Both the position numbers and the translations under genes were made by a program. The notes beneath the pieces are model-generated. The model did no database searches. It saw only the letters and a program-made list of their open reading frames with translations, and had not been told where the DNA came from. Shown piece by piece: positions 1-35,140 of a stretch of 35,140 bases of DNA (the first letter of the stretch is position 1; the number at the start of each line of letters is the position of its first letter). Source of the stretch: Escherichia coli (GTDB lineage Bacteria; Pseudomonadota; Gammaproteobacteria; Enterobacterales; Enterobacteriaceae); assembly GCF_003334405.1 (NCBI RefSeq), contig NZ_QOWM01000027.1; one strand, written 5' to 3'.

Positions 1-200
1 CAGATGCCTGATGCGACGCTAACGCGTCTTATCAGGCCTACAAATTCCCGCGCCATCCGTAGGCCGGATAAGGCGTTCACGCCGCATCCGGCAGTCGTGC
101 GCAGATGCCTGATGCGACGCTAACGCGTCTTATCAGACCTACAAATTCTCACGCCATCCGTAGGCCGGATAAGGCGTTCACGCCGCATCCGGCAGTCGTG
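1..200. repeat. REP/BIME array: two tandem ~101-bp units, each with a pair of REP palindromes
   Basis: cagatgcctgatgcgacgc begins at 1 and again at 102; each unit contains gcctgatgcgacgc...cttatcaggcctac and gtaggccggataaggcgttcacgccgcatccggc, matching the E. coli REP consensus. Lies downstream of mhpE. Confidence 0.85.
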
Positions 201-1255: not shown

Positions 1256-3017
<1,762 letters not shown>

Positions 3018-3884
3018 TTAAGGGCGTGCGAGGAAATTCAGCACCAGTTGATTGAAAGCGTCGGCATGTTCCCACTGCGCCCAGTGACCACAGTCGCGGA
3101 AGATATGCAGTTCAGAACCGGCAATGCCGGACAGCAGACGCAGACCCGCATCCATCGGCACAAAGCGGTCGTTGCGCCCCCAGACAATCAGGGTTTGCGC
3201 TTTGATTTCCGCCAGACGTGGGCCAAAATCCGGGAACTGTTTCGGATTAGCTTCCAGGCTCTTAACGAAGTTTTCCAGGTGATCGCGGCGCGACAGCATA
3301 TTATTCAGGCGCGCTTCAAACAGGGCGTCGGTCAAATCGCTGGTATCAAAAACGAAGATATCCATCATCAGCTTCAGGTTTTCGATAGTCGGCTGACGAT
3401 AAAGCTGATTCAGTCGCTTAATACCTTCGGTTGGCATCGGCGTAAACAAACTCATGCCGCCCGTACCGCCGCCCATCAGCACCAGTTTGCCGACGCGCTC
3501 CGGCCATTTAAGGGTGAACGCCACAGAACTATGGCCCCCCATCGAGTTGCCCAGCAGGTGGATTTTGGCGATATCCAGTTGATCCACCACGCTTTTCAGG
3601 ATTCGTGCATTAAGATCCGATCGCGAACCACTATTAACGACCGAATCGCTCTTGCCCCAACCCGGACAATCCAGCAGGATCACCCGATAGCCCGCCTCTA
3701 CCAGCGGATCGATATTGCGGCTGAAGTTCGCCCAGCCAGTAGCACCCGGGCCGGAACCATGCAGCAGGACAACGGTTTCGTCGCCTTGTCCGCAGTCATT
3801 AAAATGGATGCGCAGCGTTTTACCCGCTTCTTCTACATTCAGAAAACGGCTGGTGGCGGCTTCGGTTTGTGGCTGATAACTCAT
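3018..3884 (-). CDS. mhpC: 2-hydroxy-6-ketonona-2,4-dienedioate hydrolase (alpha/beta hydrolase)
   Basis: ORF-track entry extends to 3947; recognised protein starts [14 protein letters not shown] (288 aa) at 3884; GNSMGG nucleophile-elbow motif present. An upstream in-frame ATG (MQEKMM) is an alternative start. Confidence 0.88.
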
Positions 3885-3901
3885 CATCTTCTCCTGCATA
3901 T

Positions 3902-4846
3902 TCAGTTCTCTGTTCTGGCGCTTAACGAGCCAAATCCGGCAATCCACTCCGGGATTGGGCGGTAATAACGCCCTTCGCTACGCCAGTTGCCAAACGCAGA
4001 AATAGCGGCAAAAGCGGCGACCCAGGTTTTGATTTCATGTGTCGACTTTCCGGCAATGGCGGAAAGCTCTTCGTTACTGACGGCATCCAGTTCCTGTATG
4101 CGTCCCTGCTCCAGCAAAGTCATGAACTGGTTATCCCAAATCGGGTTGAGCGGATGCAGCGTTCTCTGATCCTCAACAAACTTCTCAGCGGCGCTAATCA
4201 CCCGTTGCTGACGCAATTCGCGCTCACTGGCGGGTAAATCTTTCCCGCTCCCCAACAGACGGTCGCGCATATGGGCATCGGCTTTCGCCAGTTCGGGCAC
4301 CGGCGGCTGATGGGAAAGCCCACCGGAACCCAGGAACAGCACGCGTTTATTGAGAGTGCTGGTGAAACGTCCAATGGCTTCACCCAACATGCGGGTACGC
4401 TGGAAACCGGGCAGCGGCGTGGCGACACCGTTGATGAACACAGGCAGAACTGGCACCTTATCCAGCCCACCGAGCAGGAACTCCAGCGGCTGGGCGAACC
4501 CGTGGTCCACCTGCATACAGTAAGAAACGGCAAGATCGATCCCGCTCTTCATGACGGCATGCGCACAGGCCTCCGCCAGCTCCACAGGCACGGGCAGCTC
4601 TCCTGCCGCACTGCCGAAATCACCAATTGCCGTCGCTCCAACGCCTAAACAGAACGGTGGCATCACGTCATAGAAAAAGCCGTTGTAGTGATCTGGCGCA
4701 AACAGCACCACCAGTTCAGGGGAGAATGCCGCAATACGCTCGCGGGCGCTGGCAATCACGCCATTGACCTCATCGAGCACCTCTTGCGCCGGGTCGACAT
4801 ACCCCACCAGCGGCGAGTGGGAAAGACAGTGAAGATAAGCGTGCAT
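3902..4846 (-). CDS. mhpB: 3-(2,3-dihydroxyphenyl)propionate 1,2-dioxygenase (extradiol)
   Basis: 314-aa ORF ([21 protein letters not shown]...); position between mhpA and mhpC. Confidence 0.93.
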
Positions 4847-16432: not shown

Positions 16433-17332
16433 ATGCTCTCTCGACATATCAATTATTTTCTTGCCGTGGCTGAACATGGCAGCTTCACCCGTGCCGCCAG
16501 TGCGTTGCACGTCTCCCAACCTGCGCTTTCCCAGCAGATTCGCCAGTTAGAGGAGAGTTTAGGCGTGCCGCTGTTTGACCGTAGCGGGCGAACGATTCGT
16601 CTCACTGATGCAGGAGAAGTCTGGCGACAGTACGCCAGCCGGGCGTTACAGGAACTGGGGGCGGGTAAACGGGCGATTCATGATGTTGCCGATCTGACGC
16701 GAGGATCGCTGCGTATCGCCGTCACCCCCACCTTTACGAGCTACTTTATCGGCCCCTTAATGGCGGATTTCTATGCGCGCTATCCCAGCATCACGCTCCA
16801 GCTACAGGAAATGTCGCAGGAGAAAATCGAGGATATGCTTTGCCGCGACGAGTTGGACGTTGGGATTGCCTTCGCGCCTGTGCATTCGCCGGAGCTGGAG
16901 GCAATTCCTTTACTGACAGAAAGTTTAGCGTTAGTCGTGGCGCAACATCATCCGCTGGCCGTCCATGAACAGGTGGCGTTGAGTCGCTTGCATGATGAAA
17001 AACTGGTCCTGCTCAGCGCGGAATTTGCCACCAGAGAGCAAATTGACCACTACTGCGAGAAAGCGGGGCTACATCCACAGGTGGTCATTGAGGCGAACTC
17101 AATTAGCGCGGTTCTGGAGCTGATTCGCCGCACTTCCCTTTCCACATTGTTACCAGCAGCGATTGCCACACAACATGACGGGCTTAAAGCTATTTCTCTT
17201 GCCCCGCCACTACTGGAGAGAACGGCGGTTTTGTTGCGGCGGAAAAATAGCTGGCAGACAGCCGCCGCGAAGGCATTTTTGCACATGGCGTTGGATAAAT
17301 GCGCGGTTGTTGGCGGAAATGAATCACGGTAG
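16433..17332 (+). CDS. cynR: LysR-family transcriptional activator of the cyn operon
   Basis: Recognised 299-aa protein starts [41 protein letters not shown] (HTH) at ATG 16433; ORF-track entry is over-extended to 16349; divergent from cynT. Confidence 0.9.
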
Positions 17333-17848
17333 CCGCTGACACAGGTCTGCGGCTGGAATTGCCTGATGCGCTACGCTTATCAGGCCTACGAGTTCAGTGC
17401 TCTACGTAGGCCGGATAAGGCGTTCACGCCGCATCCGGCATAAACTACAGCTGGCAGACAGCCGCTGCGAAGGCATTTTTGCACATGGCGTTGGAGGAAT
17501 GCGCGGTTGTTGGCGGGAATGAATCACGGTAGCCGCTGACACAGATCAGCGGCTGGAATTGCCTGATGCGCTACGCTTATCAGGCCTACGAGTTCAGTGC
17601 TCTACGTAGGCCGGATAAGGCGTTCACGCCGCATCCGGCATAAACTACAGCTGGCAGACAGCCGCTGCGAAGGCATTTTTGCACATGGCGTTGGAGGAAT
17701 GCGCGGTTGTTGGCGGGAATGAATCACGGTAGCCGCTGACACAGATCAGCGGCTGGAATTGCCTGATGCGCTACGCTTATCAGGCCTACGAGTTCAGTGC
17801 TCTACGTAGGCCGGATAAGGCGTTCACGCCGCATCCGGCATAAACTAA
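17249..17848. repeat. Three tandem 200-bp repeat units, each = last ~84 bp of cynR + a small hairpin + a REP pair
   Basis: ctggcagaca at 17251, 17451, 17651 and gaatcacggtagccgctgac at 17321, 17521, 17721 (period exactly 200). Units 2 and 3 are identical; unit 1 (the functional cynR 3' end) differs at ~7 positions. Confidence 0.9.
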
Positions 17849-17868
17849 GCTCGCTGTAACCCAGTCGT

Positions 17869-19152
17869 TCAACGTTTGTAATCGATGGCTTCTGGCTGCT
17901 CCAGATATACGGTGGTTTGTGCCGGTTGTGTGCTGGCAATCACCTTGCCGCCACGTACCGAATAACGTACCGGAACCTGACGGCGCAGCGCATCAAACCC
18001 ATTTTCAGCCGGCAGGATAATCAGGTTGGCGCTGTTTCCGGCGGCAATGCCGTAATCCTGCAAATTCAACGTCCTTGCGCTGTGGTGGGTGATTAAATTC
18101 AGGCCATCGTTAATCTGCCCGTAGCCCATCAACTGGCAAACATGCAGCCCCATATGCAGCACTTGCAGCATATTCGCCGTTCCCAGCGGATACCACGGAT
18201 CGAAGACATCATCGTGACCAAAGCAGACGTTAATGCCGGACTCCAGCATCTCTTTAACGCGCGTGATGCCGCGACGTTTTGGATACGTATCGAAACGTCC
18301 TTGCAGATGAATATTGACCAGCGGGTTGGCGACAAAGTTAATACCGGACATTTTCAGCAAGCGGAACAGGCGTGAGGTATACGCCCCGTTATAGGAGTGC
18401 ATTGCCGTGGTGTGGCTGGCGGTGACTCGCGCGCCCATGCCTTCATGGTGCGCCAGGGCAGCAACTGTTTCGACAAAGCGCGACTGCTCGTCATCGATCT
18501 CATCACAGTGAACGTCGATGAGACGGTCGTATTTTTGCGCCAGGGCGAAGGTTTTATGCAGCGACTCCACGCCGTATTCACGGGTAAATTCAAAATGCGG
18601 AATCGCCCCCACTACATCTGCCCCTAAGCGTAACGCCTCTTCCAGCAACGCTTCACCGTTGGGATACGACAAAATCCCTTCCTGAGGGAAGGCGACGATT
18701 TGCAGATCAATCCACGGCGCGACTTCCTGCTTCACTTCCAGCATTGCTTTCAGCGCAGTTAGCGTTGCATCCGAAACATCGACATGGGTACGCACATGCT
18801 GAATGCCGTTGGCAATCTGCCATTTCAGCGTTTGCCATGCGCGTTGTTTCACATCGTCATGGGTTAATAACGCTTTGCGCTCGGCCCAGCGTTCAATGCC
18901 TTCAAACAGCGTGCCGGACTGATTCCAGTTCGGTTGTCCGGCGGTTTGCGTGGTGTCCAGGTGAATATGTGGCTCCACAAACGGCGGTATAACTAAACCT
19001 TGTTCGGCATCCAGGCTGTTTTCAGTTATGGGCATCACGCCGGATTGCGCATCAATGGCGCTGATTTTTCCGTCCTGCAGATGAATCTGCCACAGCCCCT
19101 CTTCGCCTGGTAACCGGGCGTTAATAATTGTTTGTAAAGCGTTATTCGACAC
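17869..19152 (-). CDS. codA: Cytosine deaminase
   Basis: Recognised 427-aa protein begins (GTG start at 19150..19152) [37 protein letters not shown]...; amidohydrolase HxH motif ([10 protein letters not shown]); ORF-track entry extended 5 codons to an upstream ATG. Confidence 0.9.
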
Positions 19153-20401
19153 TGTTAGCCTCCACATGCGTCATTGCTGCTGTCGTTTTACGATTCAAAA
19201 TCGGGTTAAGGATCAGATAGCTCAGCGCGCCACCTAATACCGCGTTGACCGGAACAATTCCCGGTAACCAGTGGCCTGCAGCAATCCCCAAGGCGACCGC
19301 CAGAATCGCCACCCAATTGACACTCATCATACGCGTGGTCGCAAAGTGCTCATAGCGGCGACGGTTCATCAGATAGTCGGCGATGATCACGCCACCCACT
19401 GGAGGAATAGCTGCCGAAAGGAAGGTCAACCAGCCGACAAAATTGTTATACAGCCATAATGCGCAGACCGTACCGATAATACCGTTGATTACCGAAAGGG
19501 TTTTGCTCGACATCCCGGTAATGTTGGCGAAACCTAAACCCGACGCATAGAGTGCGTTATCGTTGGTGGTCCAGATATTCAGCCCCAGCACCACAATCGC
19601 AGGCAGCAGCAGGCCCTGAGCAATCATCACATCAGAGATATCCGCCATGCCCAGTGCCGCAGCGCCCGCTGCACCGAAAATAAACATCAACGAGTTGCCG
19701 AGGAAAAAGGCCACCATCGCCACCAGCACCGCCAGTTTGGCATTGCGACCAAACCGGACAAAGTCAGCGGTGAGCGTACCCGCACTGATAAATGACCCCA
19801 CAACCAGCGCCAGCGCGACATTGAAATCTAACGGTTGTGCGGGAACGACCGCTTTTAATGCGTCCAGGCCGCCCATGCCGTTAACAGCCAGCCACACGGA
19901 ATAACCGCCCAGGCAGGCGATAGCCGGAACCGCAATCACCGAAAGAACCGTCAGCGCCGAAATGCCAAAAAAGACGGTGACGGTCATCAGTAAACCGGAA
20001 ACGGCAATCAGCAAATTAATATCCAGCCCGGTTGCCTTACCCACCGGAATGGCAAACATCGCCACACCGACGCCAAACCAGCCAACCTGAGTTCCGCCCA
20101 GTAGCAGTGAAGGCAGCCATGAGCCTTTAACACCAAACGAGAAGCGAGCAAGAAGATGAGTGGTCAGGCCGGTTTTTGCGCCAATGTAACCGAGAAATGA
20201 AGTGTAAATACCGAGGAGAAGATTACCGATGAGAACTGCGAGGAAGAAATCATGATAGCTAAGACCGGTTCCGAGAGTGCCGCCGGTCCACATACTGGCG
20301 GAAAAGAAGGTTAATCCCAGCATGACGAACGTCAATGCCAATACCCCTTTCCGCGCCGACTGCGGGACTGGCCCCTGGCTAAAGTTGTTATCTTGCGACA
20401 C
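19142..20401 (-). CDS. codB: Cytosine permease (NCS1 family)
   Basis: 419-aa [44 protein letters not shown]...; first codon is GTG (cac on + strand at 20399..20401); 11-nt overlap with codA. Confidence 0.93.
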
Positions 20402-20467
20402 GAAATTCCCCCTTTTTGCTGTTTGAAACCCAAAAAATCCGCCGCATTCTATTCATCTGAAGATAAA

Positions 20468-20483
20468 AAGCAATCGTTTTCGT
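20468..20483 (-). promoter_or_regulatory. Candidate PurR box upstream of codB
   Basis: Minus strand reads ACGAAAACGATTGCTT, close to the PurR operator consensus ACGCAAACGTTTTCTT; 67 bp upstream of the codB start. Confidence 0.55.
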
Positions 20484-20553
20484 GGGGAAATATATTTTTT
20501 ATATGAATGAGTGCAAAAAGGTGGGGGAAAAATTATCGGTGTAAAAACAGTGG

Positions 20554-20636: not shown

Positions 20637-22522
20637 CTACTCTTCCATCGCCTGGCGGATCTGATCCAACGACGCAGGATCATCAATGGTCGTCAGATCT
20701 CCAGGATCGCGTCCTTCGCAAATCGCCTGGATCGTGCGGCGCAGCATTTTTCCGGATCGCGTTTTTGGCAATTGCGAGACAAACCAGACGTGCGCCGGGC
20801 GGCCAAAGTTGCCAATCTGGCTGTCCACCAGCGCCATAATCGCCTTCTCTTGCGAGTGCGCCACATCACGATCTTCCAGACTGTCGCTCTCTTTCGGAAT
20901 GACAAACGCCACCGCCACCTGCCCTTTCAGCGCATCTTTCACCCCAACCACCGCCACTTCGGCAACGCCCGGATGGCTGGAGATACTCTCTTCAATCTCG
21001 CGCGTCCCCAGCCGATGCCCGGCAACGTTAATTACATCGTCAGTGCGCCCGAGAATAAAGTGATAACCGTCAGCGTCACGGATGCCCCAGTCAAAGGTGG
21101 CGTACACCGGGCGGGAAAACAGCGACCAGTAAGTCTTCACAAAGCGGCCGTCGTCGCCCCAGATGGTCTGAATACACCCCGGCGGCAGCGGCCCTTCCAC
21201 CACCAGCATCCCTTTCTCGTTGACGCCACACGGTTCGCCGGTGACTTCATTAAGCAACTGCACGTTATAGCCATACATCGGCACACCGGGGCTTCCCAGA
21301 CGCGTCGGCCTGTCGTCCAGACCGCGAGCAATCGCCATAATCGGCCAGCCGGATTCGGTCTGCCAGTAGTTGTCGATGACCGGCACATCCAGCGTATTGC
21401 TCACCCAACTGGCGGTCGGCTCGTCCAGCGGTTCTCCAGCCAGATAGAGCACTTCCAGCGACGAGAGATCGTGTTTGCGAATTTCAGCGGTAGGGAATTT
21501 TTTCAGCACGCGAATGGCGGTCGGCGCTGAGAACATCCGGCTAACCTGATATTTCTCGACGATTTTCCACCACACGCCGCAGTCCGGCCAGGTCGGCAAT
21601 CCTTCGTAAACGATAGTCGCCATCCCCGCCAGCAGCGGCGCGTAAACGATATACGAATGCCCCACCACCCAGCCGATATCCGATGCGCAAAAGAACACGC
21701 TGCCCGCTTTGCCGCCAAAAATGGTGTCCATCGAGGTCGCCAGCGCCACCGCATATCCGCCGACGTCACGCTGCACGCCTTTAGGTTTGCCGGTCGTGCC
21801 GGAAGTGTAGAGAATGCAGGAGGTTTCGTTGGATTCCAGCCACGCCACCGGTACCCGCGCGCCGATGTGTTGATGGCGCAACGACGCGAAATCGACATCC
21901 CGCCCGCTGACGCGCGCCATTTTCGCCAGCCCGCGATCCACCAGCAAAACATGGCGTGGCTGGTGCTGCGCCTGACTTATCGCATCGTCGAGCAATTTTT
22001 ATAGGGAATGATTTTGCCACCGCGCGCTCCGGCATCAGCCGAGACAATCAGCACCGGTTTAGCGTCATCAATTCGCGCCGCCACGCTGTGCGAGGCAAAT
22101 CCACCAAACACCACCGAGTGAATAGCGCCAATGCGCGCGCAGGCCAGCAGAGTAATATGCGCTTCGGCAATCATCGGCATATACACCAGCACCCGATCGC
22201 CGCGCTGCACACCCAATGAACGCAACATTGAGGCCACCGCGTTCACTTCGTCATGCAGCTGACGAAAGGTAAAGGTGCGCTCTTCTTCTGTTTCCGAAGA
22301 GACGGCAATCAGCGCCAGCGCCTCTGGCTGTTTCTCCAGCCAGCGGTCGATGGCGTTGTGGCACAAGTTGGTTCGGCCTTCACAAAACCAACGGGCAAAC
22401 GGCGGATTGCTGTGATCGAGCGTTTGCGTAAAGGGCGTCTGCCAGTCAATACGCCGGGCCTGCTCGGCCCAGAACTGCTCCGGTTCGTTAATCGAACGCT
22501 GATAAAATTCGCTAAAAGACAT
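20637..22522 (-). pseudogene. prpE: Propionyl-CoA synthetase gene interrupted by a frameshift (two ORFs: 21977..22522 and 20637..21995)
   Basis: N-terminal ORF MSFSEFYQRSINEPEQFWAEQARR... ends ...GGKIIPYKNCSTMR-stop; the downstream ORF continues LDDAISQAQHQPRHVLLVDRG... with the AMP-binding motif YTSGTTGKPKG. The frames differ by one nucleotide at an A5 run (T5 at 21996..22000 on +). Confidence 0.8.
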
Positions 22523-25257: not shown

Positions 25258-25536
25258 TGTCGGATGCGACGCTATGCGTCTTATCCGACCTACAGTTCAG
25301 TTCACCCCGTAGGCCTGATAAGTCGCGTCAGCGGCGCATCAGGCATCGGTTGTCGGATGCGACGCTATGCGTCTTATCCGACCTACAGTTCAGTGCACCC
25401 CGTAGGCCTGATAAGTCACGTCAGCGGCGCATCAGGCATCGGTTGTCGGATGCGACGCCATCCGTCTTATCCGACCTACAGTTCAGTGCACCTCGTAGGC
25501 CTGATAAGTCGCGTCAGCGACGCATCAGGCATCGGC
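25258..25536. repeat. REP/BIME array: three tandem 93-bp units in the prpC-prpB spacer
   Basis: tgtcggatgcgacgc at 25258, 25351, 25444; each unit carries two REP palindromes (ggatgcgacgctatgcgtcttatccgacctac / gtaggcctgataagtcgcgtcagcggcgcatcaggc); units differ at a few positions. Confidence 0.9.
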
Positions 25537-35020: not shown

Positions 35021-35140
35021 GCCTGATGCGCTACGCTTATCAGGCCTACAATTCTCGCGCCACTCGTAGGCCGGATAAGGCGTTCACGCCGCATCCGGCA
35101 ATGGTGACAAATGCCTGATGCGCTACGCTTATCAGGCCTA
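35021..35140. repeat. REP elements upstream of yahI (run off the window end)
   Basis: gcctgatgcgctacgcttatcaggcctac ... gtaggccggataaggcgttcacgccgcatccggc ... gcctgatgcgctacgcttatcaggccta. Confidence 0.85.

Follow-up and report, generated by a model that had tools for sequence, protein, structure and literature searches.

The DNA analysed here (the window) is a stretch of 35,140 nucleotides from an Escherichia coli contig (NZ_QOWM01000027.1), and it contains the E. coli codBA operon, which encodes cytosine permease and cytosine deaminase. The codB product matches the NCBIfam equivalog NF008241 over its full length (695.5 bits against a cut-off of 326), and the codA product matches NF006685, the cytosine deaminase of the amidohydrolase fold, with 895.6 bits against a cut-off of 483. 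The latter match starts at residue 8 of the 432-aa open reading frame, which is residue 3 when counted from the GTG, and from SNNALQ onward CodA is a residue-for-residue match to the PDB chains 1K6W and 3O7U. RefSeq feature tables of matching records give the gene order prpE-codB-codA-cynR-cynTSX-lacAYZI-mhp, and codBA is described as an operon in PMC12709180 and PMC6245113. In a 100%-identical E. coli record (locus L001), RefSeq/PGAP places codB at 1500..2759 and codA at 2749..4032, with the same codA GTG start and the same 11-nt overlap. The same genes occur in E. coli K-12 (b0336/b0337), where the junction is without any difference and published datasets put the starts at 354922 and 356171, a distance of 1249 nt that equals 20401 minus 19152 here. 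The features of the locus are as follows.

19142..20401, minus strand: codB, cytosine permease (NCS1 family), 419 aa (open reading frame list, NCBIfam, RefSeq)
20401..20399, minus strand: GTG start of codB, CAC on the plus strand (direct reading)
19144..19142, minus strand: TAA stop of codB (direct reading)
17869..19152, minus strand: codA, cytosine/isoguanine deaminase, 427 aa (NCBIfam, PDB, RefSeq, N-terminal peptides)
19152..19150, minus strand: GTG start of codA, VSNNALQ... (direct reading)
19142..19152, minus strand: codB/codA overlap of 11 nt, GTGTCGAATAA (direct reading)
19159..19163, minus strand: Shine-Dalgarno (SD) sequence GGAGG of codA, within the C-terminal codons of codB, 6-nt spacer to the GTG
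19165..19167, minus strand: upstream in-frame ATG (MWRLT-CodA), non-functional as a start (no SD, comparative data)
19171..19173, minus strand: in-frame TGA closing the codA frame upstream (relative position -21)
20408..20413, minus strand: SD sequence AGGGGG of codB, 6-nt spacer to the GTG
20430..20440, minus strand: T-run GGATTTTTTGG, putative start of the codBA transcript, outside the overlap and given as context

Read directly on the minus strand, the codA start codon lies three codons ahead of the codB stop. The original prediction had assigned GTG starts to both genes and an 11-nt overlap to their junction, observing that the open reading frame list begins codA at an ATG (a 432-aa frame at 17869..19167). 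The list does contain that longer frame, and the overlap runs from 19152 to 19142 by direct reading, as it does in RefSeq. Both starts are upheld: that of codB at 20401..20399 by a conserved GTG with its SD, by Ribo-RET and INRI-seq peaks and by RefSeq, and that of codA at 19152..19150, rather than at the upstream ATG, by its SD, by comparative genomics and by published initiation and N-terminal data. The latter are of the kinds that had been proposed as checks, N-terminal proteomics and initiation-site profiling, and they favour the codA GTG. The GTG starts and the overlap are already known, annotated and confirmed by experiment, and are ordinary features. We are highly confident in the reading as a whole, namely a codBA operon with GTG starts that each have their own SD, a bystander ATG and an ancestral layout, to which translational coupling may be added as a further element.

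Outside the junction, the window is identical to none of the complete RefSeq genomes, one example being a private 1-nt deletion in prpE (minus strand, 21996..22000). There an A-run has A5 in place of A6 (CCCTAT-AAAAATTGCT), and the 628-aa gene is thereby broken into frames at 21977..22522 and 20637..21995. Of the 5172 complete E. coli genomes that contain the segment, 0 have the A5 form, the best identity of 98.4% reflecting the gap itself. Either the frameshift is real and private, or the homopolymer was misread when the source was sequenced. Between cynR and codA (17249..17851), a 200-nt unit is repeated in tandem in 3.0 copies at 98% identity; RefSeq has partial 'hypothetical protein' pseudo-CDSs in the copies because the beginning of the unit falls within the final 84 nt of cynR. 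The number of copies differs between strains, with one unit fewer in strain 720632. An Rfam scan of the window returned just three matches, all to the REP-derived naRNA4 (RF02564) and above the gathering score (62..139, 25312..25383 and 35069..35138), none of them near the codB/codA junction. REP copy number near the window start and at 25.3-25.5 kb differs from that of the closest genome.

After the TGA at 19173..19171, the codA frame offers only two candidate starts, ATG(-15) and GTG(0). The duplex between GGAGG (19163..19159) and the 3' end of 16S rRNA is predicted at -9.3 kcal/mol, and no window among the 2513 of codBA goes lower. The GTG has an SD at functional spacing, and there is no better in-frame alternative. 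The 20 nt preceding ATG 19167 have a predicted anti-SD pairing of +0.3 kcal/mol, that is, no SD, and this ATG (19167..19165) overlaps or abuts the SD that serves the GTG. PDB chains of CodA start with SNNALQ or MSNNALQ, which is weak support for the GTG since the constructs are recombinant. Danielsen et al. 1992 and Austin & Huber 1993 are both said to have found the GTG start of codA by N-terminal sequencing of the purified enzyme.

Published datasets place initiation at the same codon. In the portion of TRAINSPOTTER N-terminomics Table S1 that covers b0337 (rows 70-71), two peptides map to NC_000913:356171-356173, the codA GTG. One is the fMet-derived CodA peptide (MSNNALQ...), whose Met is encoded by the GTG and whose SILAC H/L ratio of ~17 marks it as nascent; the other is a processed form at the same GTG. 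On the evidence of the MSNNALQ peptide in these rows, the GTG of codA is decoded as fMet, as in other GTG-initiated genes. Cell-free INRI-seq (Table S2) has a codA peak at the annotated GTG, with 160-242 CPM in five replicates, located in the 12-18 nt window of this codon, and the in vivo Ribo-RET data of Meydan et al. have it as well. No codA entry is present in the complete INRI-seq Table S3 of non-annotated sites, and the synthetic template for codA contains the upstream ATG. Neither codA nor codB has an entry in the supplementary files of the TetRP paper (PMC4909307) or in those of Giess et al. 2017 (PMC5576327), and the text of the Ribo-RET preprint does not mention either gene. Our literature text search returned nothing on a GTG start codon, or on a GTG-to-ATG change, in cytosine deaminase; GTG matches in PMC2602762 were set aside as primer sequences rather than start-codon statements.

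To place the start in an evolutionary context, we compared 80 species, one genome each, with CodA identities of 76-98%. The codon homologous to the E. coli codA GTG is ATG in 50 of them and GTG in 13 (63/80 species). An in-frame stop lies no more than 15 nt upstream of the codA start (-15..-3) in 21/80 species, and a longer CodA is therefore excluded there. Among loci where codB and codA are linked, a non-ATG codA start is limited to the E. coli/Hafnia and Providencia lineages, and GTG at this position is also found in unlinked loci of Serratia, Rahnella and related genera. An ATG at -15 is present in 8/80 species only: E. coli, Hafnia paralvei and six Yersinia. In the six Yersinia (L021, L023, L024, L026, L034 and L043), codA is not linked to codB and the ATG lies five codons upstream, ~15 nt before the CodA match; since it has its own GGAG upstream, and TTA or GTA occupies position 0, a CodA N-terminus five residues longer is apparently normal in these species.

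These observations bear on whether translation could begin at ATG 19167..19165, giving a 432-aa MWRLTVSNN protein in which the GTG would be an internal valine codon. The ATG is indeed the first start-type codon past the in-frame stop, and the Yersinia group seems to start codA at the homologous position, but with the separate GGAG and the TTA/GTA codons that E. coli lacks at these places. We give an exclusive ATG start practically no credence. The CodA peptide reported in the TRAINSPOTTER rows starts with Met at the codon that would be read as Val if the GTG were internal, and effectively refutes it; moreover, the INRI-seq and Ribo-RET peak lies in the window of the GTG with no alternative site listed, the ATG has no SD (+0.3 kcal/mol) and sits on that of the GTG, and it is missing in 72/80 species, with stops within -15..-3 in 21. 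Dual initiation, in which the GTG is the main start and a minor, five-residue-longer CodA proteoform arises from the ATG, is slightly less remote and still very improbable. In its favour, the ATG is in frame and none of the E. coli junctions read (the window, L001, L002, EC958 and Z1323HEC0067) has lost it; of the 5227 matching records, about half show 100% identity across the 51 nt of the junction. In addition, the predicted three-residue peptide MWR would escape N-terminomics, being too short as a tryptic or Arg-C peptide, and that method alone is therefore blind to a minor ATG form. However, such a form would have to initiate without an SD, and the complete INRI-seq table of non-annotated sites has no codA site despite a template that includes the ATG; the retention of the ATG in E. 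coli is explained by the CodB codons (His-Val) and the codA SD that it overlaps. Dual-frame initiation of the AUGUG/GUGUG type (PMC9841429) was also considered and rejected, as the GTG following the ATG is in the codB frame, inside codB and without an SD of its own, and the real codA start reads GUGUC. ATG 19167 is thus a lineage-specific bystander that overlaps the codA SD and not a functional start.

Upstream of the codB GTG, with a 6-nt spacer, lies AGGGGG, whose duplex is predicted at -10.7 kcal/mol, and a GGAGG or GGGGG is conserved ahead of codB in orthologous loci. Where the codB N-terminus is complete (26 loci), the start codon at the homologous position is GTG in 19, TTG in one and ATG in six, with SQDNNY directly after it in most; in-frame stops at -12/-15 of the codB start are found in Proteus, Budvicia and Providencia. 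INRI-seq Table S2 gives a codB peak at the annotated GTG with 194-280 CPM in five replicates. The codB start is supported by Ribo-RET and INRI-seq peaks together with conservation; the portion of TRAINSPOTTER Table S1 covered here contains no CodB peptide. The GTG of codB is kept in several families at ~80% protein identity, an unusually stable non-ATG start, in contrast to the homologous codA start, which is mostly ATG.

Ahead of codB, the GGATTTTTTGG T-run is a site of UTP-sensitive start-site switching and reiterative transcription (Qi & Turnbough 1995, as cited in PMC12709180 and PMC6245113). We take GGATTTTTTGG as the putative start of the codBA transcript, and the motif is found upstream of codB in nearly all Enterobacterales loci compared. 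Further upstream, at 20469..20483, a PurR-box-like ACGAAAACGATTGCT overlaps a candidate -35 element (TTGCTT, 16-nt spacer, TAGAAT), and a consensus promoter scan flagged instead TTTGCA-17-TATATT at 20517..20489. When promoters and terminators were scanned over the codBA region, counts were at chance and nothing was found at the junction or between the genes.

About 14% of E. coli genes are GTG-initiated, the textbook case being lacI, whose weak start is usually linked to low expression and whose open reading frame in this window likewise starts with GTG. Unlike lacI, the codB and codA GTGs are accompanied by strong SDs and high cell-free initiation. INRI-seq peaks average 205 CPM for codA and 235 CPM for codB on an isolated fragment (-30 to about +150), without codB translation; when the table's first 150 genes, with a median of 11 CPM, are taken as a sample, both starts rank within the highest ~9%. 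Template abundance was below average for both (76 CPM for codA and 45 CPM for codB, against a pool mean of ~228). These data show that the codA initiation region is able to recruit ribosomes alone in a cell-free system. The suggestion of low intrinsic initiation in the original prediction is accordingly not supported, given the strong SDs at optimal spacing and the high peaks obtained from below-average templates.

In vivo, Ribo-RET gives 503.6 for codB and 17.9 for codA (Meydan et al.), ~28-fold lower. Peaks that are alike in vitro and 28-fold apart in vivo might reflect coupling, structure of the full-length mRNA or a loss of distal mRNA under blocked translation. A local fold of 131 nt at the codA start puts the SD in a hairpin loop, with a stability relative to shuffled sequences of z = +1.0, which is not significant, and RNA structure masking the codA start was dropped as a main mechanism. 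In a sliding-window analysis of accessibility, the 14-mer from SD to start ranks at the 28th percentile of the mRNA for codA and at the 60th for codB.

The junction itself is strongly conserved. Its 51 nt were found in 5225 of 5426 complete E. coli genomes, with 100% identity in 2563 records and about one mismatch in 2664; in EC958, the one-mismatch record examined, the change is a synonymous C>T after the stop. Across species, codB lies directly upstream of codA in 27, the genes overlap in 23 of these, and the overlap is exactly 11 nt in 17/27, including Hafnia, Budvicia, Citrobacter, Salmonella arizonae, Kluyvera, Proteus, Edwardsiella and Zophobihabitans, the last of which keeps it with a CodB only 68% identical. 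The remaining six overlapping species have 8, 14, 20 or 32 nt, and in Plesiomonas and three Pasteurellaceae the genes are separated by 9-178 nt, with a separate SD for codA. In codB-linked species, the junction consensus is CGGAGnTnAgnC-ATG-CnGaa-TAA. SD, start and stop (TAA) are the most conserved columns, while residues of the CodB tail drift: GGAG at -12..-9 is kept across genera in a layout of GGAG-N7-start-N6-TAA. Because the junction is present in 5225/5426 E. coli genomes and the SD-start-stop geometry in 17/27 species, the arrangement is no chance coincidence, and the comparison of junctions points to the 11-nt interlock of SD, start and stop as ancestral in Enterobacterales codBA.

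Two loci deserve separate mention. E. coli and Hafnia paralvei (L003) share 94% identity in CodB and 90% in CodA, compared with just 82-83% between E. coli and Citrobacter or Salmonella arizonae (L006-L008). Hafnia paralvei shares the codA GTG, the -15 ATG and the GGAGGCTAAC junction, and its flanks lack prpE and cynR. The closer similarity to Hafnia, the shared junction and the differing flanks suggest that codBA may have been exchanged horizontally between the E. coli and Hafnia lineages. In E. coli Z1323HEC0067 (L083, 1529..1554), a 6-nt deletion, GTGT[CGAATA]ACGC, removes the codB TAA, making codB 15 nt longer and the overlap 26 nt, and CodA begins with MYALQ instead of MSNNALQ; in this strain lacA directly follows codA and the cyn genes are absent.

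What the overlap does is a matter of graded probability. The codB stop lies after the codA start, which is the structural arrangement of a coupled pair, and the conserved geometry is compatible with termination-reinitiation, making coupling plausible. With the codA start three codons before the codB stop, terminating ribosomes would be placed to reinitiate or to keep the site open, and termination-reinitiation, removal of RNA structure, or both could tie CodA output to CodB translation. We regard it as roughly an even chance that the codA start of the native mRNA is also supplied, or opened up, by ribosomes completing codB. Our literature search found no experiment or paper linking E. coli codB/codA with translational coupling. 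The trpE-trpD and trpB-trpA pairs are translationally coupled overlapping genes, and termination-reinitiation in overlapping gene pairs has reportedly been described by Huber et al. 2019. Like these, codB and codA share strand and operon, and the start and SD of the second gene lie inside the first. They differ in that classic coupled pairs overlap by 1 or 4 nt (TGATG/ATGA) rather than 11 nt, that the codA site is strongly active alone in vitro, and that a dependence of codA on codB is putative.

The same facts can be read without any coupling, codA being initiated independently and de novo and the 11 nt being kept by the interlock of SD, start and stop with coding sequence; we judge this somewhat short of an even chance. 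Coupling is not required by anything observed here, because the codA site works in vitro without upstream translation and its SD is not sequestered by the local fold. The high cell-free initiation on the isolated codA fragment, the exposed SD in a fold with no significant structure, and the Pasteurellaceae and Plesiomonas genes, 9-178 nt apart with an SD for codA alone, all favour independent initiation. On the other hand, 17 species, with CodB identities as low as 68%, retain an overlap of exactly 11 nt while the sequence of the CodB tail drifts, and in vivo Ribo-RET at codA is ~28-fold under codB when upstream elongation is blocked. This lower signal and the 28th-percentile accessibility hint at context dependence for codA, and both hints are confounded by other explanations, such as distal mRNA being lost if codB goes untranslated, and model error. 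A stronger proposal is that the 11-nt interlock and the conserved codB GTG form a selected device fixing the CodB:CodA ratio. Most CodA made in vivo would then come from ribosomes that, after terminating at the codB TAA, move back by 8-11 nt to the codA start; suppression of de novo codA initiation in the native mRNA would produce peaks that are similar in vitro and 28-fold lower in vivo. We consider such a device unlikely.

The codA GTG start is decades-old knowledge, and beyond correct annotation the present result has little consequence and opens no new question. Its practical relevance lies in the use of codA as a common negative-selection or suicide gene, for which constructs need the correct N-terminus and hence the GTG. 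The comparison across species makes codBA a tidy example of a conserved gene overlap and a possible test case for translational coupling across long overlaps.
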